Below, in pieces: positions 44,141 to 64,000 of a stretch of DNA of 64,000 nucleotides. Positions within the stretch are counted from its first letter, which is position 1. Each line of letters starts with the position of its first letter. The stretch comes from Kiloniellaceae bacterium. Lineage in GTDB: Bacteria > Pseudomonadota > Alphaproteobacteria > Kiloniellales > J153. The notes under the pieces were generated by a model that saw only the letters and a list, made by a program, of their open reading frames with translations, ran no database searches and was not told the origin of the DNA. Made by a program: the position numbers and the translations under genes. Where the stretch lies: the NCBI GenBank assembly GCA_021776135.1, contig JAJFGL010000031.1, forward strand, positions 4,703-68,702, in the 5' to 3' direction.

Positions 44141-44153
44141 GGATTGCCCCCGG

Positions 44154-45803: not shown

Positions 45804-45873
45804 TTCAAGGCTTTCATTCTATTTGCCCCCCTATGGGGCCTTAGTATGGGGCCCTAGAAGCGGCGGCGGCGCC

Positions 45874-45887
45874 TTGATCTCCCTCAA
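45874..45887. promoter_or_regulatory. FNR/FixK-type box, one mismatch (TTGATCTCCCTCAA)
   Basis: Fits TTGA-N6-TCAA. Centre lies about 77 nt upstream of the USP gene ATG (45803) and overlaps the stop of the small membrane ORF. Confidence 0.4.
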
Positions 45888-46090
45888 GCGCGGTTGCGCC
45901 GGATCGCCCCGATCATGCAAAGCAACAGCCCGGCCGCGATGAGCATGGCGTGAAAGGGGACGATCTCGAGACCGCCGCGCCACGACAGCATGGTGTTGAG
46001 CCACCCCAGGATAATCAGGATAACGCCGAAGATACGAAAGACGGCGCCCCGGCTTCTATCAGGTAACGATTCCTGTGCCTCATCCCTCAT
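45884..46090 (-). CDS. Small two-TM membrane protein (68 aa) coupled to the cytochrome c/EB_dh gene
   Basis: ATGA start/stop overlap with the upstream gene. Two hydrophobic helices (VFRIFGVILIILGWL; AMLIAAGLLLCMIGAI). Confidence 0.5.
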   Translation of the reverse strand: MRDEAQESLPDRSRGAVFRIFGVILIILGWLNTMLSWRGGLEIVPFHAMLIAAGLLLCMIGAIRRNRA

Positions 46091-47622: not shown

Positions 47623-48386
47623 TCGTTCCCCCAGGTTCGCGGCGAATGGCCCGTGTAATCATAGAGGAACAGGATCGTTTTCCAGATCTCGTCTTCCTTA
47701 AGGAAATTCTGCCAGACCGGCATGGAGGAAATCCAAGGCGCCGCCTCCTTCGGCAAGCCTGGGCCGCCGGTGGCAATGCGCCAGAACAAATAGGATTCCT
47801 GAAGCTGGGCGATGGTGCCCACGTCCTGGAAATTGAGCGGCGTCGGGTTCAGGCCGGCCGCATAGGGGCCGTTGCCGTCGAGCTTGTCGCCGTGGCAGTA
47901 CTGGCAGTTCTGGATATAGACGGCGGCGCCTTCCTCAACCAATTCGCGGAATTGCTCCGGGTCTTCCTTCTCCAGCTTCCTGAAGGGGTTTTCCAGCTTC
48001 AGGAGATTGACCCGCTTACCGTAAATCTTGGCCGTGGTCGGCGGCGCCGGGTGGATGGTGCGCAACTCCAACGGCGCTTCGAAGCTGGGCTGCATCTGCA
48101 CGTAGGTGCCGGCCCCCGCCGCCAGCGGGACGATAACGAAAACGATGTTGCGCCACACGCGCTTGCTCGGATCCTCGACCAGGGCCTTGATGGGGGCGAC
48201 CAACTCGCGCGTCCCTTCCTCGTCGTAGGTAAAGACCATGAACACCCCGGCGGTGACGAAAAACATGTACATGACCAGCAGGCTGGACGGGATCACCGCC
48301 TCGAGGATCACGTCGAAGACGACGATAAAACCGAAATAGACCCCGGCCAGGACCAGCACGGCCTGCAGCAACTTGGGAATTCTCAT
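47619..48386 (-). CDS. Membrane-anchored monoheme cytochrome c (module 1)
   Basis: Hydrophobic N-terminal helices, one CQYCH motif. C-terminal WRIATGGPGLPKEAAPWISSMPVW is shared with its module-2 paralog. Confidence 0.8.
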   Translation of the reverse strand: MRIPKLLQAVLVLAGVYFGFIVVFDVILEAVIPSSLLVMYMFFVTAGVFMVFTYDEEGTRELVAPIKALVEDPSKRVWRNIVFVIVPLAAGAGTYVQMQPSFEAPLELRTIHPAPPTTAKIYGKRVNLLKLENPFRKLEKEDPEQFRELVEEGAAVYIQNCQYCHGDKLDGNGPYAAGLNPTPLNFQDVGTIAQLQESYLFWRIATGGPGLPKEAAPWISSMPVWQNFLKEDEIWKTILFLYDYTGHSPRTWGNE

Positions 48387-48396
48387 TGCCGCCTCC

Positions 48397-49218
48397 TCAC
48401 TTCAAACCGGCCAGGTAATCCAGCAGGATTTCCAGTTCCGCGACGTACATGGCCTCGCCCATATCCTCCGGCATCATGTCTTCTTCGAAGCCCTCGGCGA
48501 TATCGGCGTTGGGGTCCAGGATCGCGCGGCGGAGGTAGTCCCGGTCGCGGCTGGCGCCGATCCGGGTCAGGTCGGGCCCGACCTCGCCGCCTTCGCCGCC
48601 GATCGCGTGACAGGCGTCGCAGGTGAAAAGGGCCATGAGTTCCTGGGGGTCGGCGATGGCTTCGCGCGCTTCGCTCTCGTCTTCTTCGTCTTCTTCGTCT
48701 TCTTGCGCGCCTATGTCCTGAGGTACCTCGACCGTGACCTCGGCGCCGCTGGAATCCTGGAGATAGGCGACAACGGCCGCGACCTCGGCCTCGGACATGC
48801 CGATACCGCCGCTGGCGACATTCGGCATGGGGCTTTCGGTATCGTTGGTGCCTTTCTTGCCGAAACCGATGACCACGAAGGCCGAAGGATCGATCAGCGA
48901 CTCGGTCAGGTATTCCTCGACAGTTGCGGCCTCGCCCTCGTAGCGGGGATCTTCCAGGCGCCCTGCCGCGACCTCGCCGATCGCCGCCAACTCGGGCGCC
49001 CGGCCCAGGGAATTATGACAAAGGGTGCAGGTGCCCTTGCCGTTGAAGAGCCTCTCGCCCAGGGCGATAAAGCCGTCCAGGGTCATGGACCCGAGGTCGA
49101 GCTTTTCTTCCTTGGGCGGCGGCGCCGGTTCGATCTGCGGTATGCCGTAATTGGAATAGCCGGCGAAAAAGCCGATGGTCAGCAGGGTAAAGACAACCAC
49201 GGTGAGGAACTGGCGCAT
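48397..49218 (-). CDS. Membrane-anchored diheme cytochrome c (module 1)
   Basis: N-terminal TM helix, CTLCH and CDACH motifs. Acidic linker QEDEEDEEDESEA. Start shares 1 nt with the bd-like gene stop. Confidence 0.8.
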   Translation of the reverse strand: MRQFLTVVVFTLLTIGFFAGYSNYGIPQIEPAPPPKEEKLDLGSMTLDGFIALGERLFNGKGTCTLCHNSLGRAPELAAIGEVAAGRLEDPRYEGEAATVEEYLTESLIDPSAFVVIGFGKKGTNDTESPMPNVASGGIGMSEAEVAAVVAYLQDSSGAEVTVEVPQDIGAQEDEEDEEDESEAREAIADPQELMALFTCDACHAIGGEGGEVGPDLTRIGASRDRDYLRRAILDPNADIAEGFEEDMMPEDMGEAMYVAELEILLDYLAGLK

Positions 49219-51011
49219 TAGTCCTTCCAGTACCCGGCCGGCAGCGTCTTATCGCTACTGACCTGGGCGATCCAGAAGACGAAAATCACCATGGCCATGA
49301 AAATGATCGCGGCCACGGAGACCACATTGGCGGCATAGCCCAGGGTCGGCGTGAAGGCGTCCGGCGAGGCGTCGCGCATGATGTCGAGAACGTGCCAATG
49401 CTGGCGGATGCCGGAGCGGATGTAGCCCATCAGCCCCATGAGCCAGGTGAAGGCGACGGCGAGCAGGAACAAGGCGTACTGGGCCCGCTCCGGTATCCGC
49501 CCCCAATGCAGCGGCCCGACCTCCTTGCCGCCCCGGTAGATAAAGGAATCCAGGGCGATGCTGCCGGCGATGACAACCAAGGTGGTCAAGACCTGCGGGA
49601 TCGAGGCCGCGACCTTGTAAACCGTGTTGGTGAAGTAGCCGTGATAGATGCCCAGGAATAGGATGTTGGCGATGCCGGCCGCATAAAGCGCCACCTGTAT
49701 GGCGTTGCCGGCCTTGACCCAGGGCACGGTGGCGACCTTGTTGGCGCGCCGGTAGAACATGAAACTCAGCGCCGTGAAAATAATCATCACGTTCACCGCC
49801 GTGTTCTTGGCCGGCATGATGCCCAGGGGCCCGAGAATCTTGTGGTGCGGCCCGCCCAGGGCCTTCAACTCCTCGTTGGTCAGCACCAGGGTATGGGGCG
49901 TGAACCAGACCAGGAAGGCGCCGACCAGGACGATGGCGATGTATTTGATGTACTTGGTGTAGCGCTTGGCGCCGTCGCTGCGCCCCATGCCGCACCAGAG
50001 GTAATAGTTGGCCGAGAGGAACAGGGTGCCGATCAGCACCGCCTGGATGATGAACAGCCAGGCGAAGATGCCGCCCATGAGGGTGATCCCCATCTGCTGG
50101 CTGTAGGCGTAAATCTCGGCCGCCAGGTAGTACCCGGCGAAGGGCAGGGGCAACAGCGCGCAAATGGCGATGAAGTTGGCGTTGTACCCCATCCAGTCGT
50201 AGTGCGCGCGTTCCCGCGGCCCCGAGGCGGTCAGGAACTTGAAGGCCGCGTAGGCGCCGACGATGGAGCCGCCATAAGCGATGTTGGCGACGAAACGATG
50301 GATGTTGATGGGGTTCCAGAGGAAATTATGGATGGCGGCCCAGGCGTCGCCGCTGAAAACCCCGGCGCCATCGACACCCGCCGGGCTCATCATGAAGGTC
50401 AGCCAGGCATTGGCCAGCAACATGATCGTCGTGCCAACGGCATTGAGCACCAGGCCCAAGGTCAGATGCACCCACTTCCTGAAACCGCCCTGCAGCCAGT
50501 GCCAGCCGTAGTAATAAATGTATAGCGCCGCGCTCTCGGCGAAGAACAGCAGCGCGTAGTAGAACATGCTCTCGCGGAAAATGGTCGAGAGATAGGAAAA
50601 CAGGTGCGGATAAAACAGGATCAAGGAGAACAACAACATCCCACCCAGAATCGCGGTTAGGGAATAGGCGGTGATGGAAACCTTGATGAACTCGTAGGCC
50701 ATGTCGTCGTAGCGCTTGTCGCGGGTGCGCATGCCGATGGCTTCGATGATGAAAACGAAAATCGGCACGGCCAGGACGAAGGCCGCGAACCAGAGGTGAA
50801 GCTGGGCGAATATCCAGACCGCGACCCGGCTGTTGACGCCGGCGATGCTCGGGTAATCGGCGGCGCTGAGCTTGGGCGCCGGGGGATAAAGCCTGGCCGC
50901 CGCCTCCCCGTGCTCGGCGGCGAGGGCGCCCAACTGCTCGACGCCGGTAAAAGTAAGCGCCGCCGCGGCAAGGGCGAGCCCGATCCCGAATTTAGGGAGA
51001 GGCCGGTTCAT
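49218..51011 (-). CDS. Cytochrome bd ubiquinol oxidase subunit-I-like polytopic membrane protein (bd-like, module 1)
   Basis: 597 aa, many TM helices. CydA-like N-terminal helix with conserved His (FAQLHLWFAAFVLAVPIF). Segments YYYGW, MMSPAGVD, AHYDWMGY, LPLPFAGYY. No CydB gene adjacent. Confidence 0.75.
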   Translation of the reverse strand: MNRPLPKFGIGLALAAAALTFTGVEQLGALAAEHGEAAARLYPPAPKLSAADYPSIAGVNSRVAVWIFAQLHLWFAAFVLAVPIFVFIIEAIGMRTRDKRYDDMAYEFIKVSITAYSLTAILGGMLLFSLILFYPHLFSYLSTIFRESMFYYALLFFAESAALYIYYYGWHWLQGGFRKWVHLTLGLVLNAVGTTIMLLANAWLTFMMSPAGVDGAGVFSGDAWAAIHNFLWNPINIHRFVANIAYGGSIVGAYAAFKFLTASGPRERAHYDWMGYNANFIAICALLPLPFAGYYLAAEIYAYSQQMGITLMGGIFAWLFIIQAVLIGTLFLSANYYLWCGMGRSDGAKRYTKYIKYIAIVLVGAFLVWFTPHTLVLTNEELKALGGPHHKILGPLGIMPAKNTAVNVMIIFTALSFMFYRRANKVATVPWVKAGNAIQVALYAAGIANILFLGIYHGYFTNTVYKVAASIPQVLTTLVVIAGSIALDSFIYRGGKEVGPLHWGRIPERAQYALFLLAVAFTWLMGLMGYIRSGIRQHWHVLDIMRDASPDAFTPTLGYAANVVSVAAIIFMAMVIFVFWIAQVSSDKTLPAGYWKD

Positions 51012-51853: not shown

Positions 51854-52516
51854 CTATTTCTTCGGCTTGAAGCTGGCCACATGGCGGGCGACGTTGGTCA
51901 TGTCCTTGTCGCTAAGAAGACCGGTGAAAACCGGCATCATCTTCACCGGCTTGAAGACCTTGGGTTTTTGCAGGTAGGCGAGAATCCAATCCGGGTTGAG
52001 GCGCAGGCCGGCCTCGACCAGGGAGGGGCCGCTGCGTCCACCGGAGATTTTCTTCTTGCGTCCCACGTACTGGTGGCAACCGCTGCACGGCATCTTCTTG
52101 ATGAAGATCTGGCGGCCCTTGGGGTTCTTCTTGGGCTTGACCTTGCCGGCTTCCACCTCATCGGTCGTGAGGGTCATGAGAAAGTCCGTGACCGCGGCCA
52201 CATCGGCGCCGTCCAGCTTCGGATGATCGCCGGGGTTTTCTTCCGTGAGGCTGTTGAACTTCATGGGCCGGATGGGTTTGGGATCGGCCAGCCAGCCAGC
52301 CAACCAGTCCTTCTGGAATTTCGATCCGGCGTACCAGAGTTCCGGCCCCTTCTTGGCCAACTGGTCGTCGATGGTCTTTTCCCTGGCCGGCCCGTCGGTG
52401 TAATGGCAGGCGACGCACCCCTTGGCCTCGAAGACATCCCCGCCGGCGGCCGAACCCGGTGACGCCGCGGCGGCCAGGAAGGCCGCGCTCAAAACCGCTG
52501 TCAGCATGTGTTTCAT
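51854..52516 (-). CDS. Soluble periplasmic diheme cytochrome c
   Basis: Signal peptide. CVACH and CSGCH motifs. Confidence 0.8.
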   Translation of the reverse strand: MKHMLTAVLSAAFLAAAASPGSAAGGDVFEAKGCVACHYTDGPAREKTIDDQLAKKGPELWYAGSKFQKDWLAGWLADPKPIRPMKFNSLTEENPGDHPKLDGADVAAVTDFLMTLTTDEVEAGKVKPKKNPKGRQIFIKKMPCSGCHQYVGRKKKISGGRSGPSLVEAGLRLNPDWILAYLQKPKVFKPVKMMPVFTGLLSDKDMTNVARHVASFKPKK

Positions 52517-52551
52517 GACTTTCTCTCCTCCAATTTCTTTTACCGGCGGCT

Positions 52552-54207
52552 TCAGGCGTCCACCTCCGCCGGCGTTTCTTCTTTTTCCGCCTTACGCATC
52601 AGCCAAATCCCCAGGCCGCCCGCGACCAGGAAGGCCAGGACGCTGTAGACATAAACGCTGACCGGCGTCGGCGCCTCGATGAAGACGTAGTGCCAGGTGC
52701 TGAGGCCCATGATCAGGCCGTGTTCGCCGTTGGAGCCGTCCCAGGCATTGACGGACATGGGGGTGAACAGGCCTTTCGCGAACTGCACGTCGTTCTTGTC
52801 GCCGGTATTCAGCGGCCGCTTCATGACCACGCTCCAGCGGCCCTGGTCCCACTTCGCCTGGCCGGCGATTTGCTGGCCGCCTTCGGCTTGGCGCTTGATC
52901 GGCTGTTTCCAGCCGCGCGCGTTGCCTTCCTCCGTGCCCCGCTCCCCGGCCGCGTCCAGGTCCGCCTTCCAGACCCAGAGGTGAACCTGGTCGGAGGAGG
53001 AGCCACGGTAGAAGTGCGGTTTTTTGGTGCCCTGTGTCGGCTTCACCGCGAATTGAAGCGCGATGGAATCGCGGAAGGTTTCCAGGGCCCGCGGCATCAT
53101 GCCGTTGGCTTCCACGTAGGAACTGAAGGATCCCACCTTGGCGATCTCTATGGGGTCGAACTCCCGCGCCTCGTCGTGCACGATGTCCTTGAAGGGATCG
53201 TCCCAGGTCAGGCGGAAGGAGATGTCCGTGTCGTTGGACAAGGCTTGCACGGTCACCATCTCGATGCTCGGGTTTTGCCAGCGCGGGGCCGCGATCACCT
53301 GCCCGGCCAAGCGCATGTCCATGGGTTCGGCCGCGTCCCAGGCGTCGTCGTCCGGGCTTTCCGGCAGGTCCGCCGTGACCGCCTTGACCTGCAAGGCCTG
53401 GTGGCTGGTCAGTTCATGCTGCAAGGATTTGATGTAACCGGCCAGATACCAGCGGTCTTCCTCGTTCAGGGACTTGATGAAGGACGGCATGGGCGTGCCG
53501 CTGATGCCGCTGGTGAAGCGCATGTAGATGTCTTCGACCTCGCCCCCCGCCTTGATCTTCCAGGGGTGGGTGACGTTGCGGATGCGGATCGGGAAACCCC
53601 AGTCGTCCTTGCGGAACTCCTTGTTGCCGTCGCCGCGGCCGAGCTTGCCGTGGCAACTCCAGCATTTGGCCTTTTCGAACACCTCCTTGCCCTTGGCGAT
53701 GGTTTCGGGCGTGACGGGCGGGCGATTGGCGGGCAGGGCGATGACCTTGCCGGTAGCCACGGGATCGAGGTCCGGGTCGTCGAATTCCTGGGCGAAGGTC
53801 TTGATGTAGCCGATGACCGCCCAGCGTTCGTCCTCGCTCAGGCCGCTCTTGATCAGGTCGTTGTCGAAGGCTTGCATGGCGGTGCCCGGTAAGCCCCGGC
53901 TGACGGTGCGGAACAGATCCTCGTTGGTGGGCAGCTCACCGCTTTGGGTGGTGCGGAACTTGAAGGTGCCGAGGGTGAAGTCGCGGGGCCTGGGGTCCAG
54001 GTACTTGGCCGCCGGTCCCTCGCCATCGCCCAGAAGCCCGTGGCAAAAACTGCAACGCCGGAAATAAACGCCGCGGCCCTGCTCCAGATGATCGTCCGTG
54101 GCCTCGGGCATGGGCTTGCTCGGAACGTTGGCGGCCAGGGCCGGGGCCGGGGCCGACACCCAGGCGGCGGCGATAACGGCGGCGAGTAGTTTACATGGCG
54201 CGCGCAT
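52552..54207 (-). CDS. Diheme cytochrome c fused to EB_dh heme-b domain with C-terminal TM anchor (module 2)
   Basis: Start set at Met 54207 (ATGA overlap). Signal peptide. CSFCH and CWSCH. EB_dh pattern (ISFRLTWDD..., ALQFAV..., VNAWDGSNGE). Terminal helix VYSVLAFLVAGGLGIWL. Paralog of 46087-47622. Confidence 0.8.
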   Translation of the reverse strand: MRAPCKLLAAVIAAAWVSAPAPALAANVPSKPMPEATDDHLEQGRGVYFRRCSFCHGLLGDGEGPAAKYLDPRPRDFTLGTFKFRTTQSGELPTNEDLFRTVSRGLPGTAMQAFDNDLIKSGLSEDERWAVIGYIKTFAQEFDDPDLDPVATGKVIALPANRPPVTPETIAKGKEVFEKAKCWSCHGKLGRGDGNKEFRKDDWGFPIRIRNVTHPWKIKAGGEVEDIYMRFTSGISGTPMPSFIKSLNEEDRWYLAGYIKSLQHELTSHQALQVKAVTADLPESPDDDAWDAAEPMDMRLAGQVIAAPRWQNPSIEMVTVQALSNDTDISFRLTWDDPFKDIVHDEAREFDPIEIAKVGSFSSYVEANGMMPRALETFRDSIALQFAVKPTQGTKKPHFYRGSSSDQVHLWVWKADLDAAGERGTEEGNARGWKQPIKRQAEGGQQIAGQAKWDQGRWSVVMKRPLNTGDKNDVQFAKGLFTPMSVNAWDGSNGEHGLIMGLSTWHYVFIEAPTPVSVYVYSVLAFLVAGGLGIWLMRKAEKEETPAEVDA

Positions 54208-55172
54208 CAGTGGCTCTCCGGAATACGCGGGGTTTTCTGGGCCAGGTCGTACTCGGCCAGAATGATCTTCCAGCGCTCTTCCTCGGTCAGGCTGAGCTTC
54301 CATTCGGGCATGGCCGAATCCCAGGGCGTCGCTTCCGTGGGCAGGCCGGGGCCGCCATTGGTAACCCGCCAGAAGGTATAGCCCTCGACGATGGTCTCGA
54401 TGGTGCCGTTGTCGGTGAAATTGATCGGCCTGAGCTTGAAGCCGTCGGCCATGGGGCCGTCGCCGGCGACGCTGTCGCCGTGGCAGGCCCGGCAGTTCAT
54501 GGCGTAGAGGGCCCGGCCCTCGAACAGATTTTTCTCCAGCAGCGCCGCGCGCGCGGTTTCCCTATCCACCGAGCCGGATTCCAGCTGCGCCAGAAACTTC
54601 TTCACCGGCTCCACGGCGAAGAACTCCAGCACATGGTCCGGCTCCACTTCATTCATCCAGTTCTCCACGTCCTCTTGCACCTGGGGAATAAACTCGATCT
54701 CGTTGGCTTCGGCCTGCTCGATGAAGGCCGTGACCTGGGCCTCGCCCGGATTGGCGATGGGGTTTTTCTTGTCCTCGAAGCTCTTGGGGAAGTTCGACGA
54801 GGGATGCTGGATGCGCAGCGAGGAGGGCACCTCCACCTTGGGCACCACCACCTCGTAAACCTGCCAGGAGACCACTACCGGCACCGCCAAGAGAACGGCG
54901 GCGCGCGCAATCTTGCTATAGCCGCCACGCAGAAGCTTCTTGACCGGGCGGAGGAAGTCGTCGAGCCCCTCCTCGGAGAAGGTCACGAACAGGAACAGCG
55001 CCACGACCGTCAACACCATGTAGAAGAACATCAAGGTGCCGGGCACCGGCAGCGGGAAGGGCAGCGTCGTCACTTCCCGGGAAACCGCGGGGATGCCCCA
55101 CTTCACCAGGGCATAGACAACCAGCAGTATCAGAACCACCGTGAAGAAGCTGCCAAGCCGCAATTTTTTCAT
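54207..55172 (-). CDS. Membrane-anchored monoheme cytochrome c (module 2)
   Basis: N-terminal TM helices, one CRACH motif. WRVTNGGPGLPTEATPWDSAMPEW is paralogous to module 1. Confidence 0.8.
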   Translation of the reverse strand: MKKLRLGSFFTVVLILLVVYALVKWGIPAVSREVTTLPFPLPVPGTLMFFYMVLTVVALFLFVTFSEEGLDDFLRPVKKLLRGGYSKIARAAVLLAVPVVVSWQVYEVVVPKVEVPSSLRIQHPSSNFPKSFEDKKNPIANPGEAQVTAFIEQAEANEIEFIPQVQEDVENWMNEVEPDHVLEFFAVEPVKKFLAQLESGSVDRETARAALLEKNLFEGRALYAMNCRACHGDSVAGDGPMADGFKLRPINFTDNGTIETIVEGYTFWRVTNGGPGLPTEATPWDSAMPEWKLSLTEEERWKIILAEYDLAQKTPRIPESH

Positions 55173-55185
55173 GATCGCCCGCCCA

Positions 55186-56172
55186 TCACTGCGCCTCTGG
55201 TTTCGGCTTTTGCAACATCAGGTAAGACAGGATGTCCTGGTAGTCCTTGACCGTCATGGCCTCGGACAGGTCGTCGGGCATGACGCTCTTGGTGTCGTCG
55301 ATCCTGATTTCCTTGATGTCCGCCTTCTCCAGGGTGACCACGTCGCCGGTGGCCGTGGTGATATCGATCTCCCCGGCCTCGTCGCGGGTTTTCAGGCCGA
55401 TAGTCTGGCGGCCTTCCTGGTTGACGGCGACGTAAGTCTCGAAGCCCTTGGTCAGGGCTTTCGCCGGTTGCAAAATGGCTTCAGAGATGAACTTCAGCCC
55501 CTTGCCGGCGATGCCGGAAAGTTCCGGGCCGATCTCACCGCCCTCGCCGTTCAGGATGTGACATTCCGAGCAGTTGTCCTCGTAGACGATGGCGCCTTCG
55601 CCCGGATCGCCGCCGCCGGCGGCGGCCGCCGCGGAAATCTTGGCATAGAAGGCTTCCGTCAATTCGCCCGGCGCGGTGTCGATGGCTTCCATGTCCAGAT
55701 CGCCGCCCAGGGACATGAGATAGGCGGCCACCGCCTTGATCTCCGTGAGGCTCAAGGAAATCGGCGGCGCGTAGACCACGGCCATCTCGTTCTTGTAGCC
55801 CTTGACCACATAGGCGCCGGGGCTGGCCAGGCTTTCGACGAGGTAATCGACGGCGGTGAACTCGGTTCCTTCCTTTTCCGAACGCTCCTTGGCCCGTTCC
55901 TCGGCCCGCGCGCCCATGGCCAGGGGAAACTTTTCCCCGAATTGGCCGTGGTTCGGGCCGCGCACGGCGCTGCCTTGACCGCCGACGCTATGACAGGTGA
56001 AGCAACGCCCCTTGCCCCAGTAGATGGTCTCGCCGCCTTCCGGGCTGACATCGACGGCGGCGCTGGTTCTTTGTCCGCCCCCGGTAAGTTCGGTAATGGA
56101 ATATCCGATCCAGAGGTAGGTGCCCAAGACGATCAGCAGAAAAGCAAACAGGCGGGCAAGGGTCGCGGCCAT
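55186..56172 (-). CDS. Membrane-anchored diheme cytochrome c (module 2)
   Basis: N-terminal TM helix. CFTCH and CSECH motifs. Paralog of 48397-49218. Confidence 0.8.
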   Translation of the reverse strand: MAATLARLFAFLLIVLGTYLWIGYSITELTGGGQRTSAAVDVSPEGGETIYWGKGRCFTCHSVGGQGSAVRGPNHGQFGEKFPLAMGARAEERAKERSEKEGTEFTAVDYLVESLASPGAYVVKGYKNEMAVVYAPPISLSLTEIKAVAAYLMSLGGDLDMEAIDTAPGELTEAFYAKISAAAAAGGGDPGEGAIVYEDNCSECHILNGEGGEIGPELSGIAGKGLKFISEAILQPAKALTKGFETYVAVNQEGRQTIGLKTRDEAGEIDITTATGDVVTLEKADIKEIRIDDTKSVMPDDLSEAMTVKDYQDILSYLMLQKPKPEAQ

Positions 56173-56176
56173 GCCC

Positions 56177-58327
56177 TCAGTCCTCCTTCTTGCCCGTAGC
56201 GGCGCCGCCGAGCCAGAACATGAAGGCGCACCCGATCATGAACAGAAGAACGGCGGCGCCGACCTGCTGGGTCATGACGAAATTACTTGGCGTGTAGGCC
56301 CATTCCGAGGTGTCGCGCATGATCCCGAAGATGTGCCAATCGCCGCGCAGGCCGGAACGGATAAAGCCCATGAGGCCCATGTTCATGGTGATGATGAAGG
56401 TCAGCAGCAACAACGCGTACTGAGACCGCACGGTCATCTTGCCCCATTGCAGCGGGCCCAGGGACTTGGCGCGCTTGAACAGGAAGACGTCGATGACCGA
56501 AACCAGAATCAGACAGCTTATGAGTTGCAGGAATTGCGCGACCGCCACGTTGCGCAGCACCGGCGAGGCCTTCTCCATGACCACGAAGCCCCAGACGCCC
56601 AGGAACAGGGTCACGTTGAAGGCGGTGACGGCCAGATAGAGCACCTGCCCCAGCTTGCCCCGGTCCATGAGCGCCAGGACGATGGCGGCGGCGCCGGCCA
56701 GGCACTCGAAGACCAGCACATAGCCGATCATATGGATGAATTCGGCCCGGTCCGCCGGCAGGTCGAGCGCGGCCGGATCCAGGGTCAGCATGGTCACCGC
56801 GTACTGCGCCACCAGGGCGATGGCGGCGGCGCCGATGACTATGATGGTAATGCGCGCGCCCTTGCCCTGATCGCGGATCGAGACCGCGTCCATCATGTTG
56901 CCCCGGCGATACAGCAGGAAGCTGAAGAAGGTCGCCAGGATGATCAAATTCACGACCGCGTTCTTGGCCGGCATCAGGCCCAGGAACTTGAGCATGGGAT
57001 GATACTGGCTGCCGCCCATTTCACCGACCTCCAGGCTGCTCAGGGGCAGGTTATGGGGGGTCAGCCAAATGGCGAAGGAGACGATCAGCGCCAGCAGGAT
57101 GTACTTGATGAACTTGTAATACCGCTGGGCGCCGGGGATGCGGGTCATGCCGCTCCACAGGTAGTAGTTGGAGATAACGAACAGAGAGCCCACCAGCATG
57201 GCCTGGATGATGAAGGTCCAGGAAAAGTCGCCGCCCATCATGTTGTTGCCCATGACCGCGCTGGTCGAATAAACCTCGCGCCCCAGGTAATAGCCGGCGA
57301 AGGGCAGCGGGATCAGCGCCGCGATGGCGACGAAGTTGGCGATATAGCCCATCCAGTCGTAATGAGCCTTTTCCTGCGGCGTCTTGGCGGCGATGAATTT
57401 GACGGCGGCGTAGGAACCGGCGACCAGGCCGCCGAAGGCCAGATTGCCGAGCATGCGGTGAATGGCGATCGGCGTGGCCAGGACGTTTTCGAAAGCCTGC
57501 CAGACGGTGCCGACAAGAACGCCGTCCGCGTCGACGCCGGCCGGGCTCATCATGTAACCGGCCCAGGAGTTGGCCAGTTGCATGATCGCGGTGCCGAAGA
57601 CGTTGAGAGTAATGCCGATGAAGATGTGGGTCGATTTCAGATCGCGGATCATCCAGAACCCGATGGCCGTGGGCGTGATGTAAAGAAGCAGGATGAACCA
57701 GCGGGTATCGACCCGCATGTCGGGACCGATGAAGCCGAGGCCGAAGGCCAGGCCGAAGCCGGCCATGAGCACGGCGAGCGCCTTGAACAGCCATTGCAGT
57801 TTGACCGGGAATTTGCGTTCGCTCTTCAGCCAATTCCAGCCGTAATAATACATATACAGCGCGAAGGTCTCGCCGAAGAACAGCAGTGCGTACATGAACA
57901 TGACATCTTTGAAGATGCCGGCCATGTGGCCCATGAAGGTCGGGTAGAGGGTAAACAGCGCGAAGGCCAGAAGCCCGCCCAGAGCGGCGGTGGTCGCGTA
58001 GGCGATGCTCAAAAGACTGGTGAACTCATAGGCCAGTTTGTCGAACTTGGGGTCTTTGTTGTTCCAGCCGACGATCTCGATAATCACCGCGAAGAGCGGC
58101 ACGCCGAGAACGAAGGCGGCGAAGAACAAGTGCATCTGGGCGATGAACCAGATCAGGCGCCGGGAATCGATGCCCAGGAACTGGCGGTAGACGTTCTCCT
58201 CCAGCGCCAGGGCCGGGGTCGCGGCAAGGACCAGCCCGACCGCGACCAGAACCGCCAAGCCCAGGCTTGCGGTTCGGGAGATTCCCCACCCGGCGCTAAG
58301 GTTGTTCGTCGTTCGACCCTGCGTCAT
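56177..58327 (-). CDS. Cytochrome bd subunit-I-like polytopic membrane protein (bd-like, module 2; about 70-aa extra two-helix insertion)
   Basis: 716 aa. Same conserved blocks as module 1 (IAQMHLFFAAFVLGVPLF, YYYGW, MMSPAGVD, AHYDWMGY, LPLPFAGYY), plus an inserted hydrophobic segment FPVKLQWLFKAL...GFWMIRDLKS. Confidence 0.75.
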   Translation of the reverse strand: MTQGRTTNNLSAGWGISRTASLGLAVLVAVGLVLAATPALALEENVYRQFLGIDSRRLIWFIAQMHLFFAAFVLGVPLFAVIIEIVGWNNKDPKFDKLAYEFTSLLSIAYATTAALGGLLAFALFTLYPTFMGHMAGIFKDVMFMYALLFFGETFALYMYYYGWNWLKSERKFPVKLQWLFKALAVLMAGFGLAFGLGFIGPDMRVDTRWFILLLYITPTAIGFWMIRDLKSTHIFIGITLNVFGTAIMQLANSWAGYMMSPAGVDADGVLVGTVWQAFENVLATPIAIHRMLGNLAFGGLVAGSYAAVKFIAAKTPQEKAHYDWMGYIANFVAIAALIPLPFAGYYLGREVYSTSAVMGNNMMGGDFSWTFIIQAMLVGSLFVISNYYLWSGMTRIPGAQRYYKFIKYILLALIVSFAIWLTPHNLPLSSLEVGEMGGSQYHPMLKFLGLMPAKNAVVNLIILATFFSFLLYRRGNMMDAVSIRDQGKGARITIIVIGAAAIALVAQYAVTMLTLDPAALDLPADRAEFIHMIGYVLVFECLAGAAAIVLALMDRGKLGQVLYLAVTAFNVTLFLGVWGFVVMEKASPVLRNVAVAQFLQLISCLILVSVIDVFLFKRAKSLGPLQWGKMTVRSQYALLLLTFIITMNMGLMGFIRSGLRGDWHIFGIMRDTSEWAYTPSNFVMTQQVGAAVLLFMIGCAFMFWLGGAATGKKED

Positions 58328-58344
58328 CGCCCTCTTGCCTGCCG

Positions 58345-59130
58345 CTACTCGCTATCGGAGAAGGTAAAGTCGATCTCCTGCGCGCCCTTGGCGGCGACCG
58401 TGATCTTGGTTTTCTTGACCCCGTAGCGCGGATGCCAGGCCTTCAGCGTGTACTTGCCCGGCGGCAGGTTATCGATGGCATAGGAGCCGTCGTCGCCGAC
58501 CACCACGGCATAGGGATGAACCGGCGCCATGATGAAGCCGAACATGAAGTTGTGGGCCTCGCAGTTGATGCCGATGTAGGACGAGCGGCGCGGCTTGATC
58601 TTGTCGGTGATGTCGCCGGGATCCGGCTGCCCGAAGTTGAAGAGCGTCTTCTTGACCACGCGGCCCTTCTCGACCCCGATCAGCTCACGGGCGTTGATGT
58701 TGTGCAGCACCCCGGCGTCGCTGTTGCGGATGACGAAGGGGCCGGGCCTGACGACCTGGGCCCAGGGCCGGAAACGGCAACCCTTCTGATTGACCAGATA
58801 GGTGCCCATCTCGGGCTTCGGCCAGGCTTTGCCTTCCTCAATCTTGGAAATGAAAACGAAAACGCCGCGCAAGGCGCCGTCCTTGACGTCAACCCAGGCG
58901 ACTTCGCGCTCGCCCTCGCCGCAAACATCGACGTTTTTGGTAATCAGGATTTTCTCGATTGCGTCGGCGGGAACCGCGCCCTCGAAACTAATCTTGCCGG
59001 TGACCGTGCCGCCATCGGCGACGTCCATTTCTTTGTACTTGTCCTTTTTGGCCGCCTCTACCGGCGCCGCTAGCGCCAGGGAGGCAAAAGCAGCCAGCAC
59101 AAGGCTGACGATAGGTAATTTCGATGTCAT
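58345..59130 (-). CDS. Periplasmic cupredoxin-like protein (putative type 1 Cu site) with beta-sandwich (CarboxypepD_reg-like) C-terminal domain
   Basis: Signal peptide. Candidate ligands H in GVLHNI and C-x2-H-x2-M in INCEAHNFM (amicyanin-like spacing). C-terminal DDGSYAIDNLPPGKYTLKAWHP. Confidence 0.55.
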   Translation of the reverse strand: MTSKLPIVSLVLAAFASLALAAPVEAAKKDKYKEMDVADGGTVTGKISFEGAVPADAIEKILITKNVDVCGEGEREVAWVDVKDGALRGVFVFISKIEEGKAWPKPEMGTYLVNQKGCRFRPWAQVVRPGPFVIRNSDAGVLHNINARELIGVEKGRVVKKTLFNFGQPDPGDITDKIKPRRSSYIGINCEAHNFMFGFIMAPVHPYAVVVGDDGSYAIDNLPPGKYTLKAWHPRYGVKKTKITVAAKGAQEIDFTFSDSE

Positions 59131-59145
59131 GGAAAGTATCCTCCT

Positions 59146-61419
59146 TTATCCGTGCCGCATGCGGCCGCTAGCCTCGGCGGCTGAAGCGTTCAGTTCTTCC
59201 AAGGCCTCGATGGCGACGGACCAGATCCGCTTGCGCGCCGGGTCGCTAAGCACATCGATAAAGAGCGCGCTGGCGCGCGCCGCATCCAGGCCGCGCATGA
59301 GACGGGCGGCCTGGCGGCCGTGATAACCCTCGAAGGAAACGGCGAAATCGGCCAGCAGTTCGAGCGTCCCTTCGCCACCGCCGCGCGCGACCGCTTCCGC
59401 GGCGTGCAGGCGCACGGCAGGATCGGGATCGTCGAGCAGCGCCTCGGCCAGCGAAACGGCGTGGCCCGAGATCGAGAGCGCACGCACCGCCGCCGCGCGC
59501 ACGAAGCTGTCTTCATCGCCGGTATGTTCAACCAACAGCGCGCTCGCTGCTTCGCTGCCGGCGGCGGCCAAGGCGCGTATCAGGAATAGTTTCATATCCC
59601 GGTCAGCCGTCGCCATGGCGGTCAAGAGCGTTTCGGCGACGTCGGGGGGGAGCGGACTTAGATGCGCGCCGATGCGGGCCAAGGAATCGGCCGCCGTCAG
59701 GCGCAGCTCGGCATCTTCGCCGTCAAGGACGGCGGCCAAGGCCCTCGCCACCTCGGCTTGCGCGATATCGCCCAGCACCCGGGCCGCGAAGCGGCGGATA
59801 TCCTCATGCAAGACCACCTTGGGCGCCAAGGATATGCGCTTCTTGCCCTTGATGCGCTTGGCCATGGCCAAGCGCTCCATGTCGGTCGGGGTCAATTCGA
59901 TGCCCTGTGCGGGCAAGTCCAGAACCTTCCCGGCCTCCGGTTCGTCGGCAAGAATCGCGTTCAGGGTGGAGGTTGGGAAGGCCTCAGCCTCAGCCTCAGC
60001 CTCAGCTTCCGCCTCGGCCTCAGTCTCGGCCTCAGTCTCGGCTTCCGCTTCGGGCGCCGCCTCGATTTCGCGCGGATTTTCCGTGGCGGCGTTTTGCGCG
60101 CCGGGTTCGCCATCGGTTTCGGGCGCGTAGCCGCCCCCCAGGGCCGACAGCAAGGCCGCCCCGGCATTGTTGGGCCAGGCGGCATCGGCCTTGGCCAGCC
60201 GCGCCAGCGCCGACATGGTTTCCAGGCGAATGGCGCGCTCGGAATCGTCGATGGCATCCACCAGCGCCGACACCGCCCCCGCGCCGCCGGCCATCGCCAA
60301 GCCTTGGAGCGCCCCGAGGCGGACATCGACCGGCCGCCCGGTATCGCCGAGCAAGGGGATCAAGGATTCCACCGCCGCTTTCGGGGCGGCGGCGGCGAGA
60401 GCGCGGGCGGCGGCCGCCGCGATCTCGGCGGAGGAATCCGCGAGCTTCGCGCGCAAGGCCGCGGTCAGGGTCTCGTTAGCGGGAAAATCACGCACGTCCG
60501 CGAGGACCTTCAATGCCGCCACCTGCACGCAAGCCGCGGCGTCCGCGATCATGGCTGGAAGACGCTCGACATGGCGCCCGCCGCAAAGCCGCACGGCCTC
60601 GGCGCGAAGCGCGTCATCGGGATCCTCGAACAAGGCCGCCAAACGACCGTCCGCGGGAGCCCGCGCCGCCAGCGTCCGCAGGGCCGCGCCGCGCACCTCG
60701 GCGGCGGGGTCGGCGAAAGCCCGCGCCAGCGGGACCGTTGCTTCCTCGTCATCCGTGGATGCCAGGGCCGCCGCCGCGCGCCGGCGCAAACGCGCCGAGT
60801 CTTCGTCAAGGAAAGCATTCAGCGCCTCAATACCCGGCCTGCCCATGCGCGCCAGCGCCTTGAAGGCCGTCTCGGTCATATCCTGGGCGTTTTCTTCGCC
60901 CATGGCGGCGACGATATCGGGCACCGCCTCGCCCACGTTAAGGTCCGCCAGGGCGTCGACCGCTTTGATCTGAATATCGACCCAGTCGTCCCAGCCGCTG
61001 GAATAGAACTCTTCTTCGTCCCAGGCGATCTCTTCGTCGCGGCCCTTGAGCATGCGCCGGAGCCAGGGCACGACCCGCCGGTCCTGTAATTTCGCCAGGG
61101 CCTCAATGGCCGCCAGCTTGACCCCTGTACAAGGATCGCCGAGCAGATTCTCAAGGAGCTGTTTGCCGGCCTGCGGATCGGCAAGCGCCGAAAGCGCCTC
61201 GGCGGCGTCGGTGCGGACATCTTCGTCCTCGTCCAGCAGGGCCGCGATCAAGGGCTCGACGGCCGCCGGCGCGCCGATACGCCCCGAAGCCTGCGCCGCC
61301 AAACAGCGGTGCACGTCGATCCCATCGCTGAGAACGCCGCCCAGTACCCGGCACACCTCGTCCGATACCGGAGGGCGGAACGCTGTCCGGTCCTGCGGCT
61401 CAGATCCTTTGGACGTCAT
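59146..61419 (-). CDS. Cytoplasmic HEAT-repeat (PBS-lyase-type) protein, 757 aa, with central acidic (EA/ET)n linker
   Basis: Many repeats of the form D-x-D/E-x-x-V-R-x-x-A-A-x-A-L (e.g. DEDVRTDAAEALSAL, DPAVRLHAAEAVARGG). No signal peptide. Confidence 0.75.
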   Translation of the reverse strand: MTSKGSEPQDRTAFRPPVSDEVCRVLGGVLSDGIDVHRCLAAQASGRIGAPAAVEPLIAALLDEDEDVRTDAAEALSALADPQAGKQLLENLLGDPCTGVKLAAIEALAKLQDRRVVPWLRRMLKGRDEEIAWDEEEFYSSGWDDWVDIQIKAVDALADLNVGEAVPDIVAAMGEENAQDMTETAFKALARMGRPGIEALNAFLDEDSARLRRRAAAALASTDDEEATVPLARAFADPAAEVRGAALRTLAARAPADGRLAALFEDPDDALRAEAVRLCGGRHVERLPAMIADAAACVQVAALKVLADVRDFPANETLTAALRAKLADSSAEIAAAAARALAAAAPKAAVESLIPLLGDTGRPVDVRLGALQGLAMAGGAGAVSALVDAIDDSERAIRLETMSALARLAKADAAWPNNAGAALLSALGGGYAPETDGEPGAQNAATENPREIEAAPEAEAETEAETEAEAEAEAEAEAEAFPTSTLNAILADEPEAGKVLDLPAQGIELTPTDMERLAMAKRIKGKKRISLAPKVVLHEDIRRFAARVLGDIAQAEVARALAAVLDGEDAELRLTAADSLARIGAHLSPLPPDVAETLLTAMATADRDMKLFLIRALAAAGSEAASALLVEHTGDEDSFVRAAAVRALSISGHAVSLAEALLDDPDPAVRLHAAEAVARGGGEGTLELLADFAVSFEGYHGRQAARLMRGLDAARASALFIDVLSDPARKRIWSVAIEALEELNASAAEASGRMRHG
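59981..60052. repeat. Imperfect hexanucleotide tandem repeat (gcctca/gcctcg/gcttcc units) encoding EAEAETEAETEAEAEAEAEAEA
   Basis: Read directly. About 12 units, in frame within the HEAT-repeat gene. Confidence 0.8.
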
Positions 61420-61461: not shown

Positions 61462-61499
61462 GCGGGCCCGGCTGACCGCTAGGGTTCAGCCGGGCCCGC
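61462..61499 (-). other. Intercistronic stem-loop (14-bp perfect stem GCGGGCCCGGCTGA/TCAGCCGGGCCCGC, 10-nt loop)
   Basis: Read directly. Starts 9 nt after the molybdoenzyme stop codon. Followed on the minus strand by AAGTGCGTTTGAGTT (only weakly U-rich). Possible partial terminator or mRNA-stability element. Confidence 0.5.
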
Positions 61500-61507
61500 T
61501 TTAAAGT

Positions 61508-64000
61508 CTACGTGATATCCCTCGGTGCGAAGGACATGGAGCGGAAAGATTTCTTGTAGGGCGACTCGCCGATCTTCTTCACCTCGGCGACACCCATCTT
61601 GTAGTTATAGTTGCCGCTGATCCAATCGACGATCCGGCCTTCCAGCGCATTCGCGGGCTGCGAGGTGTGCAGGAAGTCCATGTAGAGGATGCCCTTCTTG
61701 ATGTGGCGCGTGACCATGGCGACGCCGGTGACGGCGGCCCGGGTCAGCTCCACGTTTCCGGCCTTCATCTGGCCGCTGAAGGAATAATCGCTACCCTCCA
61801 CGCCGAGAATCGTTTCTTTCAGGCTTGGCACCCGGTCGGAAAAGACCATCAGCATGTCGCCGCTCTCGATGCCGCGCGCCTTGGCGTCTTCGGGATGGAT
61901 TTCGACGTAGTTGTCGGGCCAGCGCTGAACGATGTAAGGACGGCGCCGGTCGTCGAAACCCGACTGCCAACGCTCGTTTGTGCGCCCCGAGGTGCACCAG
62001 AGCTCGTCGCCCTTGGGTTTCATCCATTCCCAATAGTCCGAGAACAGCGACCAGGGCGATTTCTGGATGTTGCAGCGCCCGGTCTGACTATTGAAATGGG
62101 TCAGTTTCTTGTTGAACATATTAGCGCCCTGCGGCCCATCGGGATCGAGTTTCCGGGTCGTGTCGTGCAAGCGCTTGGTTCCCATCAGGGACCCGTCTTC
62201 GCGCATGAACACCGGGCCTTGGATGCCGTTGGTGCCGAACTCGCCAAGTTTTTGATGCAGGGTCTTGCCCTCGCGGTGGGCGGCGACCTTGATCATGTTG
62301 AAGTCCTTGCGGCTGCCGCGTGAGAAGCGGGCCGATTCCTCGGCGACATCGTTGGAATTCTTCCAATCGAAACCGTCGAAGCCCATGCGCTTGCCCAATT
62401 CGGCGATGATCCACCAATCGGGCTTGGCCTCGCCGGGCGGGTCGTAGAAGCGGTTGTATAGCCGTAGGCGCCTTTCGCCGTTGGCCCGCATGAAGGTGTC
62501 TTCGCCCCAGGTGGCGGCCGGGAAAACAATGTCGGCGTAGCGGTTGCCGATGGGATCGACCAAATAGATGTCCTGGTTGATGACCACCATGCCGCCGGAG
62601 TCGGCGCGCCGCTTCAGGGTATCGATGATGTCCTGCTTGTCGTAGGCCCGCACCTGATGGGGGTTGGCCACGGTCAATTCCTCGAACCGCTTGGCCAGTT
62701 GCTGCGATCCGCACATGGATTGGATCCAAGTGGTGCCGATGACATGGGCGAAGCGGGTATGCCCCGACATGGTCCAGGTATCCGTGTCGAGCGCCCGGCG
62801 CCTGCGCCCCGGCAGTTTCATGGGCGACTTGTTACGCGGATACTTGCCGCCGCGCTGTCCGCCGCGCTGATGGCCGCCGGCCCTGCCGATAACCTGACCG
62901 GGCCTGCCGCCGGCGCCGACGATAATGCCCAAGGCGCTGATCGCCTGGGTATTGCCGGTGTTGTTGGACCAGTAGAAACCCTTTTCGATCATGAGCGAGG
63001 TCTTGGGATGCTTGCCATTCCTCGGCTTGGCCATCATTTCCGCCGCCGTGTAGATTTTCTTGATGTCGATACCGGCGACCTTGGCGGCGTGCTCGGGCTT
63101 GAACTCATCCTGGGCCAGGAGCCATTTTTTCCAATCGTCGAAGCCATCGGTCTGGAACTTGCCCCAGGTCGTGCGCCATTGCCACGGCGTGTTCCGGGTG
63201 CCCTGGCCGAAGCCGGAGTTGGAGCCCCACTTGTTATTGACCCAGTTCTCGATCCACTCGGCATCCTGCCAGTTATTTTCGACGATGATCCGGGCGATGG
63301 CGTTGACCACCAAAAGGTCGGTGCCGAGGTTAACGTCGAGCCACAGCCCGCCGTTGTTTTCGGCATAGGCCACGCCAGCGGTGCGGCGCGGGGTCATCAT
63401 GATGCACTTCTGGCCGTTCTGGATGCCCTTCATGATCCACTGGGTCCAGAGAATGGTCTTGGTCTCGTAAGGATCCGTGCCGCAGATCATCAGGGTCTCG
63501 GCATTCATCCAATCCTCGTAGGCCGGGCCGAAGTTATCGAACCCGGCGTCGCGGAAGCCGGGCGTCGAGGAAACGTCGGAGGGCGTGTCGTGGAAGGTGA
63601 AGTTGGCCGTGTTGATGTGGCGCAGCGCATACTTGGTGATGGCGTAGGTGTTCTCGATGAACTGATAGGAGTAAGTCTTGACGCCGTAGGCATTGGCCCC
63701 GTGCTTGGTGCGCACGTAGTTGCCGACCTCGGCCGCCACATCGAGGGCGAAGTCCCAGGGCACCGGCTGCAGGATGCCGTAAATCCGCATCAGCGGCGCG
63801 CTCAGCCGGTCGCGGGTCGGGGTTTGCGGATTGTAGCATTTCTGCGCGATACAGCCGCCGCGCAGGCTCGAATCGCCGTCGGTGTTGACGAACTCGGTAT
63901 CCTTGTCGGGAACAATCACGACATGGTGCGGCTCGCCCTCGTGCAGCACGACATTGTGCTGGTTGGGCGCCACCCAGGGGCCCAGGACCTCGACCGGGAA
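61508..64000 (-). CDS. Arsenite-oxidase-family (AioA-like) molybdopterin oxidoreductase catalytic subunit; N-terminus (3Fe-4S region) beyond the window edge
   Basis: Reading frame stays open to position 64000. Blocks align with my recollection of AioA: VVIVPDKD...SSLRGG; FHDTPS...ICGTDPYETKT; GGHQRGG; FPAATWGE...ANGERRLRLY..FYDPPGEAKPDWWIIAE; FDWK; C-terminal YKMGVAEVKKIGESPYKKSFRSMSF. Confidence 0.85.
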   Translation of the reverse strand, partial: FPVEVLGPWVAPNQHNVVLHEGEPHHVVIVPDKDTEFVNTDGDSSLRGGCIAQKCYNPQTPTRDRLSAPLMRIYGILQPVPWDFALDVAAEVGNYVRTKHGANAYGVKTYSYQFIENTYAITKYALRHINTANFTFHDTPSDVSSTPGFRDAGFDNFGPAYEDWMNAETLMICGTDPYETKTILWTQWIMKGIQNGQKCIMMTPRRTAGVAYAENNGGLWLDVNLGTDLLVVNAIARIIVENNWQDAEWIENWVNNKWGSNSGFGQGTRNTPWQWRTTWGKFQTDGFDDWKKWLLAQDEFKPEHAAKVAGIDIKKIYTAAEMMAKPRNGKHPKTSLMIEKGFYWSNNTGNTQAISALGIIVGAGGRPGQVIGRAGGHQRGGQRGGKYPRNKSPMKLPGRRRRALDTDTWTMSGHTRFAHVIGTTWIQSMCGSQQLAKRFEELTVANPHQVRAYDKQDIIDTLKRRADSGGMVVINQDIYLVDPIGNRYADIVFPAATWGEDTFMRANGERRLRLYNRFYDPPGEAKPDWWIIAELGKRMGFDGFDWKNSNDVAEESARFSRGSRKDFNMIKVAAHREGKTLHQKLGEFGTNGIQGPVFMREDGSLMGTKRLHDTTRKLDPDGPQGANMFNKKLTHFNSQTGRCNIQKSPWSLFSDYWEWMKPKGDELWCTSGRTNERWQSGFDDRRRPYIVQRWPDNYVEIHPEDAKARGIESGDMLMVFSDRVPSLKETILGVEGSDYSFSGQMKAGNVELTRAAVTGVAMVTRHIKKGILYMDFLHTSQPANALEGRIVDWISGNYNYKMGVAEVKKIGESPYKKSFRSMSFAPRDIT

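Follow-up and report, generated by a model that had tools for sequence, protein, structure and literature searches.

Which substrate does a molybdoenzyme act on when it reads like an arsenite oxidase and its surroundings hold no arsenic genes? The question is raised by an open reading frame (ORF) at the right-hand end of a 64,000-nucleotide stretch of the genome of a Kiloniellaceae bacterium (contig JAJFGL010000031.1; this whole stretch is hereafter called the window). From the letters alone, the original prediction had described its product as AioA-like throughout, with an altered substrate pocket, and had proposed a substrate other than arsenite, naming the iodate reductase IdrA as the known alternative. 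Four lines of evidence agree (sequence identity, the phylogenetic tree, signature residues and gene order in relatives), and we conclude from them that this ORF is very probably the idrA gene of an uncultured marine alphaproteobacterium, coding for the large, catalytic subunit of IdrAB, the periplasmic iodate reductase. The window protein belongs to the Aio clade, yet it is not an arsenite oxidase but an ordinary member of the described and experimentally supported IdrA family, and its iodate-reducing activity is predicted from its characterised relatives.

IdrA drives the bacterial reduction of iodate to iodide, thereby shaping iodine speciation in oxygen-poor seawater and, via iodide, also affecting ozone deposition at the sea surface (PMC8692401, PMC11445184). 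Iodate reduction that depends on molybdenum, and its induction by iodate, have been shown for Azoarcus sp. DN11, Pseudomonas sp. SCT, Denitromonas IR-12 and Roseovarius azorensis (PMC8692401, PMC11445184, PMC10149662), and the DN11 enzyme was found by mass spectrometry in an iodate-dependent activity-stained band (Sasamura et al. 2023, PMC10149662). More recently, iodate reduction was shown in three aerobic marine Alphaproteobacteria carrying the idr cluster; among them, R. azorensis responds with iodate-induced idr transcription from 0.1 µM iodate and its IdrA was found in an iodate-dependent activity band (Kine et al. 2024, PMC11445184). The cluster is known as idrABP1P2, and the synteny of peroxidase, Rieske and IdrA genes is the published criterion for the IdrA clade, to which all homologues "between 50 and 80%" identical to IdrA and with this synteny were assigned; the "aioA-like" genes of oxygen-minimum zones were accordingly reinterpreted as idrA (Reyes-Umana et al. 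2021, PMC8692401). Since the clade of the window protein had already been assigned to IdrA in that same work, neither a new substrate nor a new enzyme is supported here.

Results and Discussion

The reading frame and its full-length counterpart

The ORF is open over 830 codons on the minus strand, from a TAG stop codon at 61508-61510 up to base 64000, where it runs off the window (Table 1). The public databases hold an identical full-length protein (NCBI; P0001, 890 amino acids, encoded on an 81-kb contig and 100% identical to the window fragment), and therefore idrA is a complete gene that only the window edge interrupts, its first 60 codons lying beyond base 64000. With P0001 the missing N-terminus is recovered: the additional 60 residues hold C26-x2-C29-x3-C33, which, together with S104, completes the C-x2-C-x3-C-x70-S motif of the 3Fe-4S cluster, a motif described both for AioA (PMC3758308) and for IdrA (PMC10149662). 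Neither a twin-arginine translocation (Tat) nor a Sec signal was found in the full-length sequence of P0001.

In the window fragment, the Pfam domains are Rieske_3 (the 3Fe-4S domain), Molybdopterin and Molydop_binding. Among solved structures, it comes closest to two arsenite oxidases, those of Rhizobium NT-26 (4AAY) and Alcaligenes faecalis (1G8J/1G8K), with about 30% identity, the same fold and a 3Fe-4S cluster in the place of 4Fe-4S. Relative to AioA, the window IdrA is extended by insertions past the GGHQ segment and within the C-terminal domain. The alignment bears out the claim of AioA-likeness over the whole length, C-terminal tail included, with the tail aligning only past an Idr-specific insertion of about 34 residues.

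Relation to characterised IdrA and AioA proteins

The window protein is 50% identical over 889 amino acids to the IdrA of Azoarcus sp. DN11 (AYH44092.1), our characterised anchor, whose sequence was taken from the printed supplement of Sasamura et al. 2023 (PMC10149662), and 49% identical to a DN11-like IdrA encoded on an Azonexus plasmid (itself 81% identical to the DN11 protein), while its identity to the AioAs of NT-26, Thermus HB8, Hydrogenophaga and Acidiphilium is 28-30%. Protein searches returned more than 1000 relatives, the best 120 of which are 76-100% identical and, where named, mostly from marine Alphaproteobacteria; the nearest are metagenome-assembled genomes, several with bin names in the style of Saanich Inlet (SI0xx).

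In a neighbour-joining (NJ) tree (42 sequences, 789 columns, 100 bootstraps, midpoint rooting), with the DN11 IdrA as its experimentally identified iodate reductase, the window protein stands in a subclade with 100% bootstrap, which joins the DN11 subclade and one deep representative in a group that also has 100% bootstrap. The AioA anchors (NT-26, Hydrogenophaga, Thermus and Acidiphilium) form a separate clade to which the window protein does not belong. Its subclade, which is mainly marine, includes Roseovarius conchicola (76% identical to the window protein), Aliiroseovarius sp., Thalassovita taeanensis, Ruegeria and Roseibium.

Pseudomonas SCT and Denitromonas are not named among the matches of a protein search seeded with the Azonexus enzyme, nor is the R. 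azorensis IdrA (WP_093034476.1) named among the matches of the protein searches. The quantitative PCR primers for R. azorensis match none of the retrieved loci, nor do their translations correspond to an informative peptide.

Compared with the respiratory IdrA of Azoarcus sp. DN11 and others, the window protein has the same domain architecture, a length in the same range (about 880-890 amino acids), the same 3Fe-4S motif, an A subunit devoid of a signal peptide, and the same sequence signatures and C-terminal insertion, as described below; it differs in belonging to a separate subclade. The organisms of Kine et al. 2024 (R. azorensis, Aliiroseovarius sediminilitoris and Notoacmeibacter marinus) share the habitat and the class of the window lineage, and the predicted size of the window IdrA matches the R. 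azorensis protein (99.4 kDa); the window lineage differs in being uncultured and Rhodospirillaceae-like and in also having a cytochrome bd-like/cytochrome c cluster beside idr.

Residues of the substrate pocket

In AioA, the residues H195, E203, R419 and H423 hold three waters that fill the arsenite site (Warelow et al. 2013, PMC3758308). We anchored the AioA numbering on PDB entry 1G8J, in which IHNRPAYNSE corresponds to I194-E203 and RMGGHQEGY to R419-Y427, and both HMMER and MAFFT aligned the two pocket segments free of gaps, IHNRPAYNSEVHGTRDMG with TFHDTPSDVSSTPGFRDAG and RLGGHQEG with RAGGHQRG. The motif registration of the original prediction is thus correct, as is its reading of the first segment, in which the His (H195) is kept and the acidic position of NSE is Ser (E203 to Ser). 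Its description of the second segment as retained does not hold, given that, even with R419 and H423 kept, it carries the most diagnostic change of all, E425 to Arg. In summary, of the four arsenite-site residues the window protein keeps H195, R419 and H423 and has Ser in the place of E203; it also departs from AioA at N196 (Asp), R197 (Thr), A199 (Ser), Y200 (Asp) and E425 (Arg). The arsenite-binding residues are therefore not all conserved and the protein is placed outside the AioA clade by the NJ tree, which is the opposite of the finding that would have spoken for a true arsenite oxidase.

We scored the signature columns over 344 aligned sequences; the H-D, GGHQ-R and insertion signatures used here were derived in this analysis and not from the literature. 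The AioA signature reads IHNRPAYNSE in segment 1 and R.GGHQEGY in segment 2, the consensus of the window subclade (201 sequences) reads FHDTPSDV[TS]STPGFRD and RAGGHQRGG, and that of the DN11 subclade (122 sequences) HDK..NTNDATGLDD and RGGGHQRG. The H-N of AioA is replaced by H-D in 100% of both Idr subclades; GGHQ-R stands in place of GGHQ-E in all 201 sequences of the window subclade and in 99% of the 122 of the DN11 subclade, with E in the four AioA anchors (4/4). The change from HQE to HQR, a Glu-to-Arg replacement two residues past H423 that is common to both Idr subclades, is the most consistent difference between Idr and Aio proteins. Judging from the residues alone, the loss of the acidic E203 and E425 (to Ser and Arg) would fit a switch from the binding of neutral As(OH)3 to that of an oxyanion, and the changes at positions 196 (N to D), 197 (R to T) and 200 (Y to D) may be read in the same way.

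One further pocket position deserves mention. Ser201 of P0001 (codon 63580-63582), which aligns with Ala199 of AioA, is Ser in 99% of the window subclade, and the position is mostly Ala or Ser in the DN11 subclade. In other enzymes of the dimethyl sulfoxide (DMSO) reductase family, this is the position of the protein ligand to molybdenum. According to the literature, the metal in IdrA has no protein ligand (PMC10100899).

Additionally, the deep-branching relatives (37-44% identity; among P0331-P0339 and P0342) split between AioA-like HNRP/HQE and Idr-like HD or HE/HQR combinations, and the HQ-E/R position may thus mark a functional change across the whole Aio/Idr clade.

Gene order in related loci

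We scanned one genome per GTDB species, obtaining at least 599 matching loci, and analysed the best 80 (66-92% identity). A Rieske gene, idrB, lies directly upstream of idrA in 77/77 loci with upstream DNA, and both peroxidase genes are found upstream in 70/70 loci with at least 3 kb of upstream sequence. The gene order in orthologous loci is di-haem peroxidase (idrP2), di-haem peroxidase (idrP1), Rieske protein with a Tat signal (idrB) and, last, idrA, which is the same peroxidase-peroxidase-Rieske-IdrA order as in the respiratory clusters; on two orthologous contigs, two di-haem peroxidase genes of the CCP/MauG type, the Rieske gene and the large-subunit gene are followed by a gene for a HEAT-repeat protein. 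In one close relative (locus L002, whose IdrA shares 91% identity with that of the window), the Tat motif SRRAFL and the Rieske site C-x-H-x18-C-x2-H are present in IdrB, and each of the peroxidases has a signal peptide and two CxxCH motifs.

Since idrB and both peroxidase genes precede idrA in this family, we infer from the orthologous loci that the idrB, idrP1 and idrP2 genes of the window genome lie upstream of idrA, past base 64000. A Rieske partner with a Tat signal is common to the Idr and Aio systems; the Idr cluster differs in holding peroxidase genes and in lacking aioXSR and ars genes, in contrast with the NT-26 and Acidiphilium loci. The reaction, too, runs in the opposite direction, Idr being a reductase and AioA an oxidase.

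Arsenic context and annotation labels

The absence of ars and aioXSR genes nearby, on which the original prediction had partly relied, was checked in two ways. No ars or aio gene was found by NCBIfam or Pfam scans of the approximately 48 window ORFs of at least 150 amino acids, and tblastn of the 64-kb window with AioX, AioS, AioR, AioB, ArsC and ArsR returned just generic kinase, receiver and cytochrome c similarities; for the small ORFs (<150 amino acids), the check for arsenic genes is by tblastn alone.

The names given to these genes in the databases tell a different story. The homologues are called 'arsenate reductase (azurin) large subunit' or 'arsenite oxidase large subunit' (NCBI PGAP, JGI), and the best NCBIfam match of the window fragment is the AioA model TIGR02693 (E-value 2e-97, with 327 bits against a cut-off of 359); no IdrA-specific model is among the NCBIfam matches of the window protein. 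The full-length P0001 reaches 389 bits on this model and the DN11-like Azonexus IdrA 426, versus 1499 for a true AioA. The cut-off does not separate IdrA from AioA, and because it admits IdrA, idrA genes carry 'arsenate reductase (azurin)' labels and hundreds of marine genomes are labelled as those of arsenite oxidisers. IdrA can be told from AioA by the H-D and GGHQ-R signature combined with the synteny of the peroxidase genes, and the practical value lies in annotation.

Alternative explanations

That the window protein is a genuine arsenite oxidase large subunit, as NCBI PGAP and JGI name its close homologues, is a reading that we consider close to refuted. The same fold and 3Fe-4S motif, the three out of four arsenite-site residues that are kept and a full-length score above the equivalog cut-off are what it has in its favour, besides the names themselves. 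The same AioA label is borne by the Azonexus IdrA, which is, as seen above, a near relative of a demonstrated iodate reductase; identity to four real AioAs stays at 28-30%, E203 and E425 are Ser and Arg, a real AioA scores far higher on the same model, and the protein stands outside the AioA clade. Moreover, all relatives hold the two peroxidase genes that AioA loci lack (PMC8692401), and no aioXSR, ars or aioB-type context was found among the window ORFs tested. A truncated or decaying remnant of idrA, stranded without partners at the end of a rearranged locus, was rejected as well, based on the intact and identical protein of 890 amino acids: the absence of a start codon region and of visible partner genes might suggest a pseudogene, but the frame is open up to base 64000, the truncation is due to the window edge, and hundreds of intact orthologues, 76-92% identical, share the conserved motifs, which are intact in the window protein.

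An Idr-type enzyme with another or a broader substrate (for example bromate, chlorate, selenate or another oxyanion), or one serving mainly as an electron sink and not in respiration, is improbable, although less so than the two readings above. For this subclade, identity to the respiratory type of DN11, SCT and IR-12 reaches only about 50%, several pocket positions differ, and the neighbours are not the same: a HEAT-repeat gene, with or without the bd-like cluster, lies downstream in loci of the window type, a cytochrome c gene and moaA flank the Azonexus cluster, and cytochrome c and molybdenum-cofactor genes are reported near the cluster of Pseudomonas sp. SCT in the DN11 paper (PMC10149662). 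Also, the aerobic marine strains of Kine et al. 2024 reduce iodate and cannot grow on it anaerobically, for which an electron-sink role was proposed (PMC11445184). On the other hand, the iodate-induced transcription and the iodate-dependent activity band of R. azorensis (PMC11445184) point to iodate, both subclades have the HQ-R and H-D signatures in common as well as the peroxidase-peroxidase-Rieske-IdrA unit, and no data point to another specific substrate. The assignment to IdrA has, for its part, several points weighing against it. Identity to the characterised DN11-type enzymes is just about 50%, and the DN11 sequence used is text from optical character recognition with small errors; the pocket differs between the window and DN11 subclades, with T/K at AioA position 197, D/N at 200 and S/D at 203; the tree is of the NJ type rather than maximum likelihood and is midpoint-rooted; the tie of the tested marine strains to the window's subclade runs through genus-level relatives (Roseovarius, Aliiroseovarius) and the statements of the papers; and the window stops inside idrA, so that idrB, idrP1 and idrP2 come from orthologous loci and were not seen on this contig. 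Even so, iodate reductase IdrA is the identification that we regard as very probable.

Proposed functioning of the system

Following published models (Yamazaki 2020, in the form in which it is cited; Reyes-Umana 2021, PMC8692401; Kine 2024, PMC11445184), IdrA would fold with its molybdenum-bis(molybdopterin guanine dinucleotide) cofactor (Mo-bisMGD) and its 3Fe-4S cluster and, having no signal peptide of its own, would be exported together with IdrB via the Tat pathway. In the periplasm, IdrAB would take electrons from a soluble c-type cytochrome and reduce IO3- at the molybdenum, probably to HIO, which would then disproportionate to I- and IO3-, with IdrP1 and IdrP2 removing H2O2 or oxidant by-products. 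In aerobic marine Alphaproteobacteria, such a system would be induced by sub-micromolar iodate at low oxygen.

Genes downstream of idrA

The features of the window discussed here are collected in Table 1.

Table 1. Positions in the window of idrA, its sequence landmarks and the features downstream of it
Feature	Position	Strand	Remarks
idrA (iodate reductase catalytic subunit, very probable; Mo-bisMGD, 3Fe-4S)	61508..64000	-	Residues 61-890 and stop codon within the window
DSSLRGG segment, with the Ser of the C-x2-C-x3-C-x70-S 3Fe-4S motif	63854..63874	-	The Ser is S104 of P0001
Pocket segment 1, TFHDTPSDVSSTPGFRDAG (P0001 195-213)	63542..63598	-	Counterpart of AioA 193-211 (A. faecalis numbering), with the positions of H195, A199 and E203
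Pocket segment 2, GRAGGHQRGG (P0001 432-441)	62858..62887	-	R433 = AioA R419, H437 = H423, R439 = E425
C-terminal-domain insertion, about 34 residues	61739..61831	-	In both Idr subclades, absent from AioA (alignment)
GC-rich stem-loop, 14-bp stem, no U tract	61462..61499	-	Between the idrA stop codon and the next gene
HEAT-repeat protein, 757 amino acids, 8 HEAT_2 repeats, no signal peptide	59146..61419	-	88 bp after idrA
Tightly spaced co-directional array downstream of the HEAT gene	51854..59130	-	Linkage to idr seen in part of the relatives
Paralogous bd-like/cytochrome c set	46087-51011	-	bd-like protein of 597 amino acids; cytochromes c of 273, 255 and 511 amino acids

The HEAT-repeat protein encoded after idrA has an acidic low-complexity linker rich in Glu, Ala and Thr. 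Its gene follows idrA in 63/70 loci with enough downstream DNA, the seven exceptions being all gammaproteobacterial, and the protein diverges much faster than IdrA does (66% versus 91% identity in L002). In the relatives of the window locus that were examined, no sigma-54 two-component regulator, cytochrome c or moaA gene was seen beside the cluster, the HEAT-repeat gene being there instead.

The array that follows the HEAT gene encodes a secreted beta-sandwich protein of 261 amino acids (CarboxypepD_reg-like), a protein of 716 amino acids with about 14 transmembrane helices that matches cytochrome bd subunit I only over the first helices and resembles the OR-N class of Murali et al., and four cytochromes c (of di-haem, mono-haem and di-haem plus EB_dh haem-b domain types, one of them having the EB_dh domain). 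Further on lies a paralogous set, whose cytochrome c of 511 amino acids has a haem-b domain of the DMSO-reductase-type-II gamma/EB_dh kind, and after it, completing a minus-strand span of 41478-51011, come genes for an unknown protein of 549 amino acids, an AhbD/NirJ2-like radical S-adenosylmethionine haem synthase and a protoporphyrinogen oxidase. The same bd-like/cytochrome c set follows idr in the closest relatives, and a paralogous set is found upstream of idr in other genomes; in total, 26/80 loci have one no more than 10 kb away from idr, downstream in some and upstream in others. The 51854-59130 array is an uncertain member of the idr system.

The known idr cluster comes without a dedicated quinol oxidoreductase (Reyes-Umana et al. 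2021, PMC8692401). It is tempting to ask whether the functional unit in the alphaproteobacterial Idr subclade is larger than idrABP1P2, including the HEAT protein and, in the window's lineage, the bd-like/cytochrome module, a proposal that we hold as tentative and rather unlikely. In such a unit, the HEAT-repeat protein, fast-evolving and cytoplasmic, could be a dedicated maturation, export or scaffold factor, and the bd-like/cytochrome module could be a dedicated electron route from the membrane to IdrAB or could couple iodate reduction to micro-aerobic respiration. Our literature search returned no mention of idrA together with HEAT repeats or bd-like oxidases. The linkage of the HEAT gene to idrA, and that of the bd-like/cytochrome c cluster to idr in the window's lineage, are modestly new, and they offer modest, testable leads on the physiology of iodate and the electron route to Idr.

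The hairpin after idrA

The original prediction had pointed to a strong hairpin following the catalytic gene in the place of its usual partners. The hairpin is real; the partners are not replaced by it, as in this family they precede idrA and would lie past the window edge. The region of 96 nucleotides has a minimum free energy of -41.8 kcal/mol (z-score -4.6), most relatives have a GC-rich hairpin past the stop codon of idrA, and in one of them (L012) a compensatory change from G-C to A-U is seen in the homologous stem. We do not regard the stem-loop as an intrinsic terminator, because it has no U tract and was not called by a consensus terminator scan. It marks the 3' end of idrA, and within the idr transcript it probably serves as a 3'-end or attenuating element (a 3'-end stabiliser or a partial terminator) that may let some transcription pass into the HEAT-repeat gene.

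Plasmid-borne idr genes

Genes of the DN11 type were also seen on plasmids, namely in Azonexus hydrophilus (NZ_CP151407.1, locus L003) and in Thiothrix subterranea (locus L005). The Azonexus plasmid carries idrABP1P2, flanked by a pair of sensor kinase and sigma-54 regulator genes, a cytochrome c gene, moaA, and Tn7-like and IS21 transposition genes. These observations agree with reports that the iodate reduction island is mobile.

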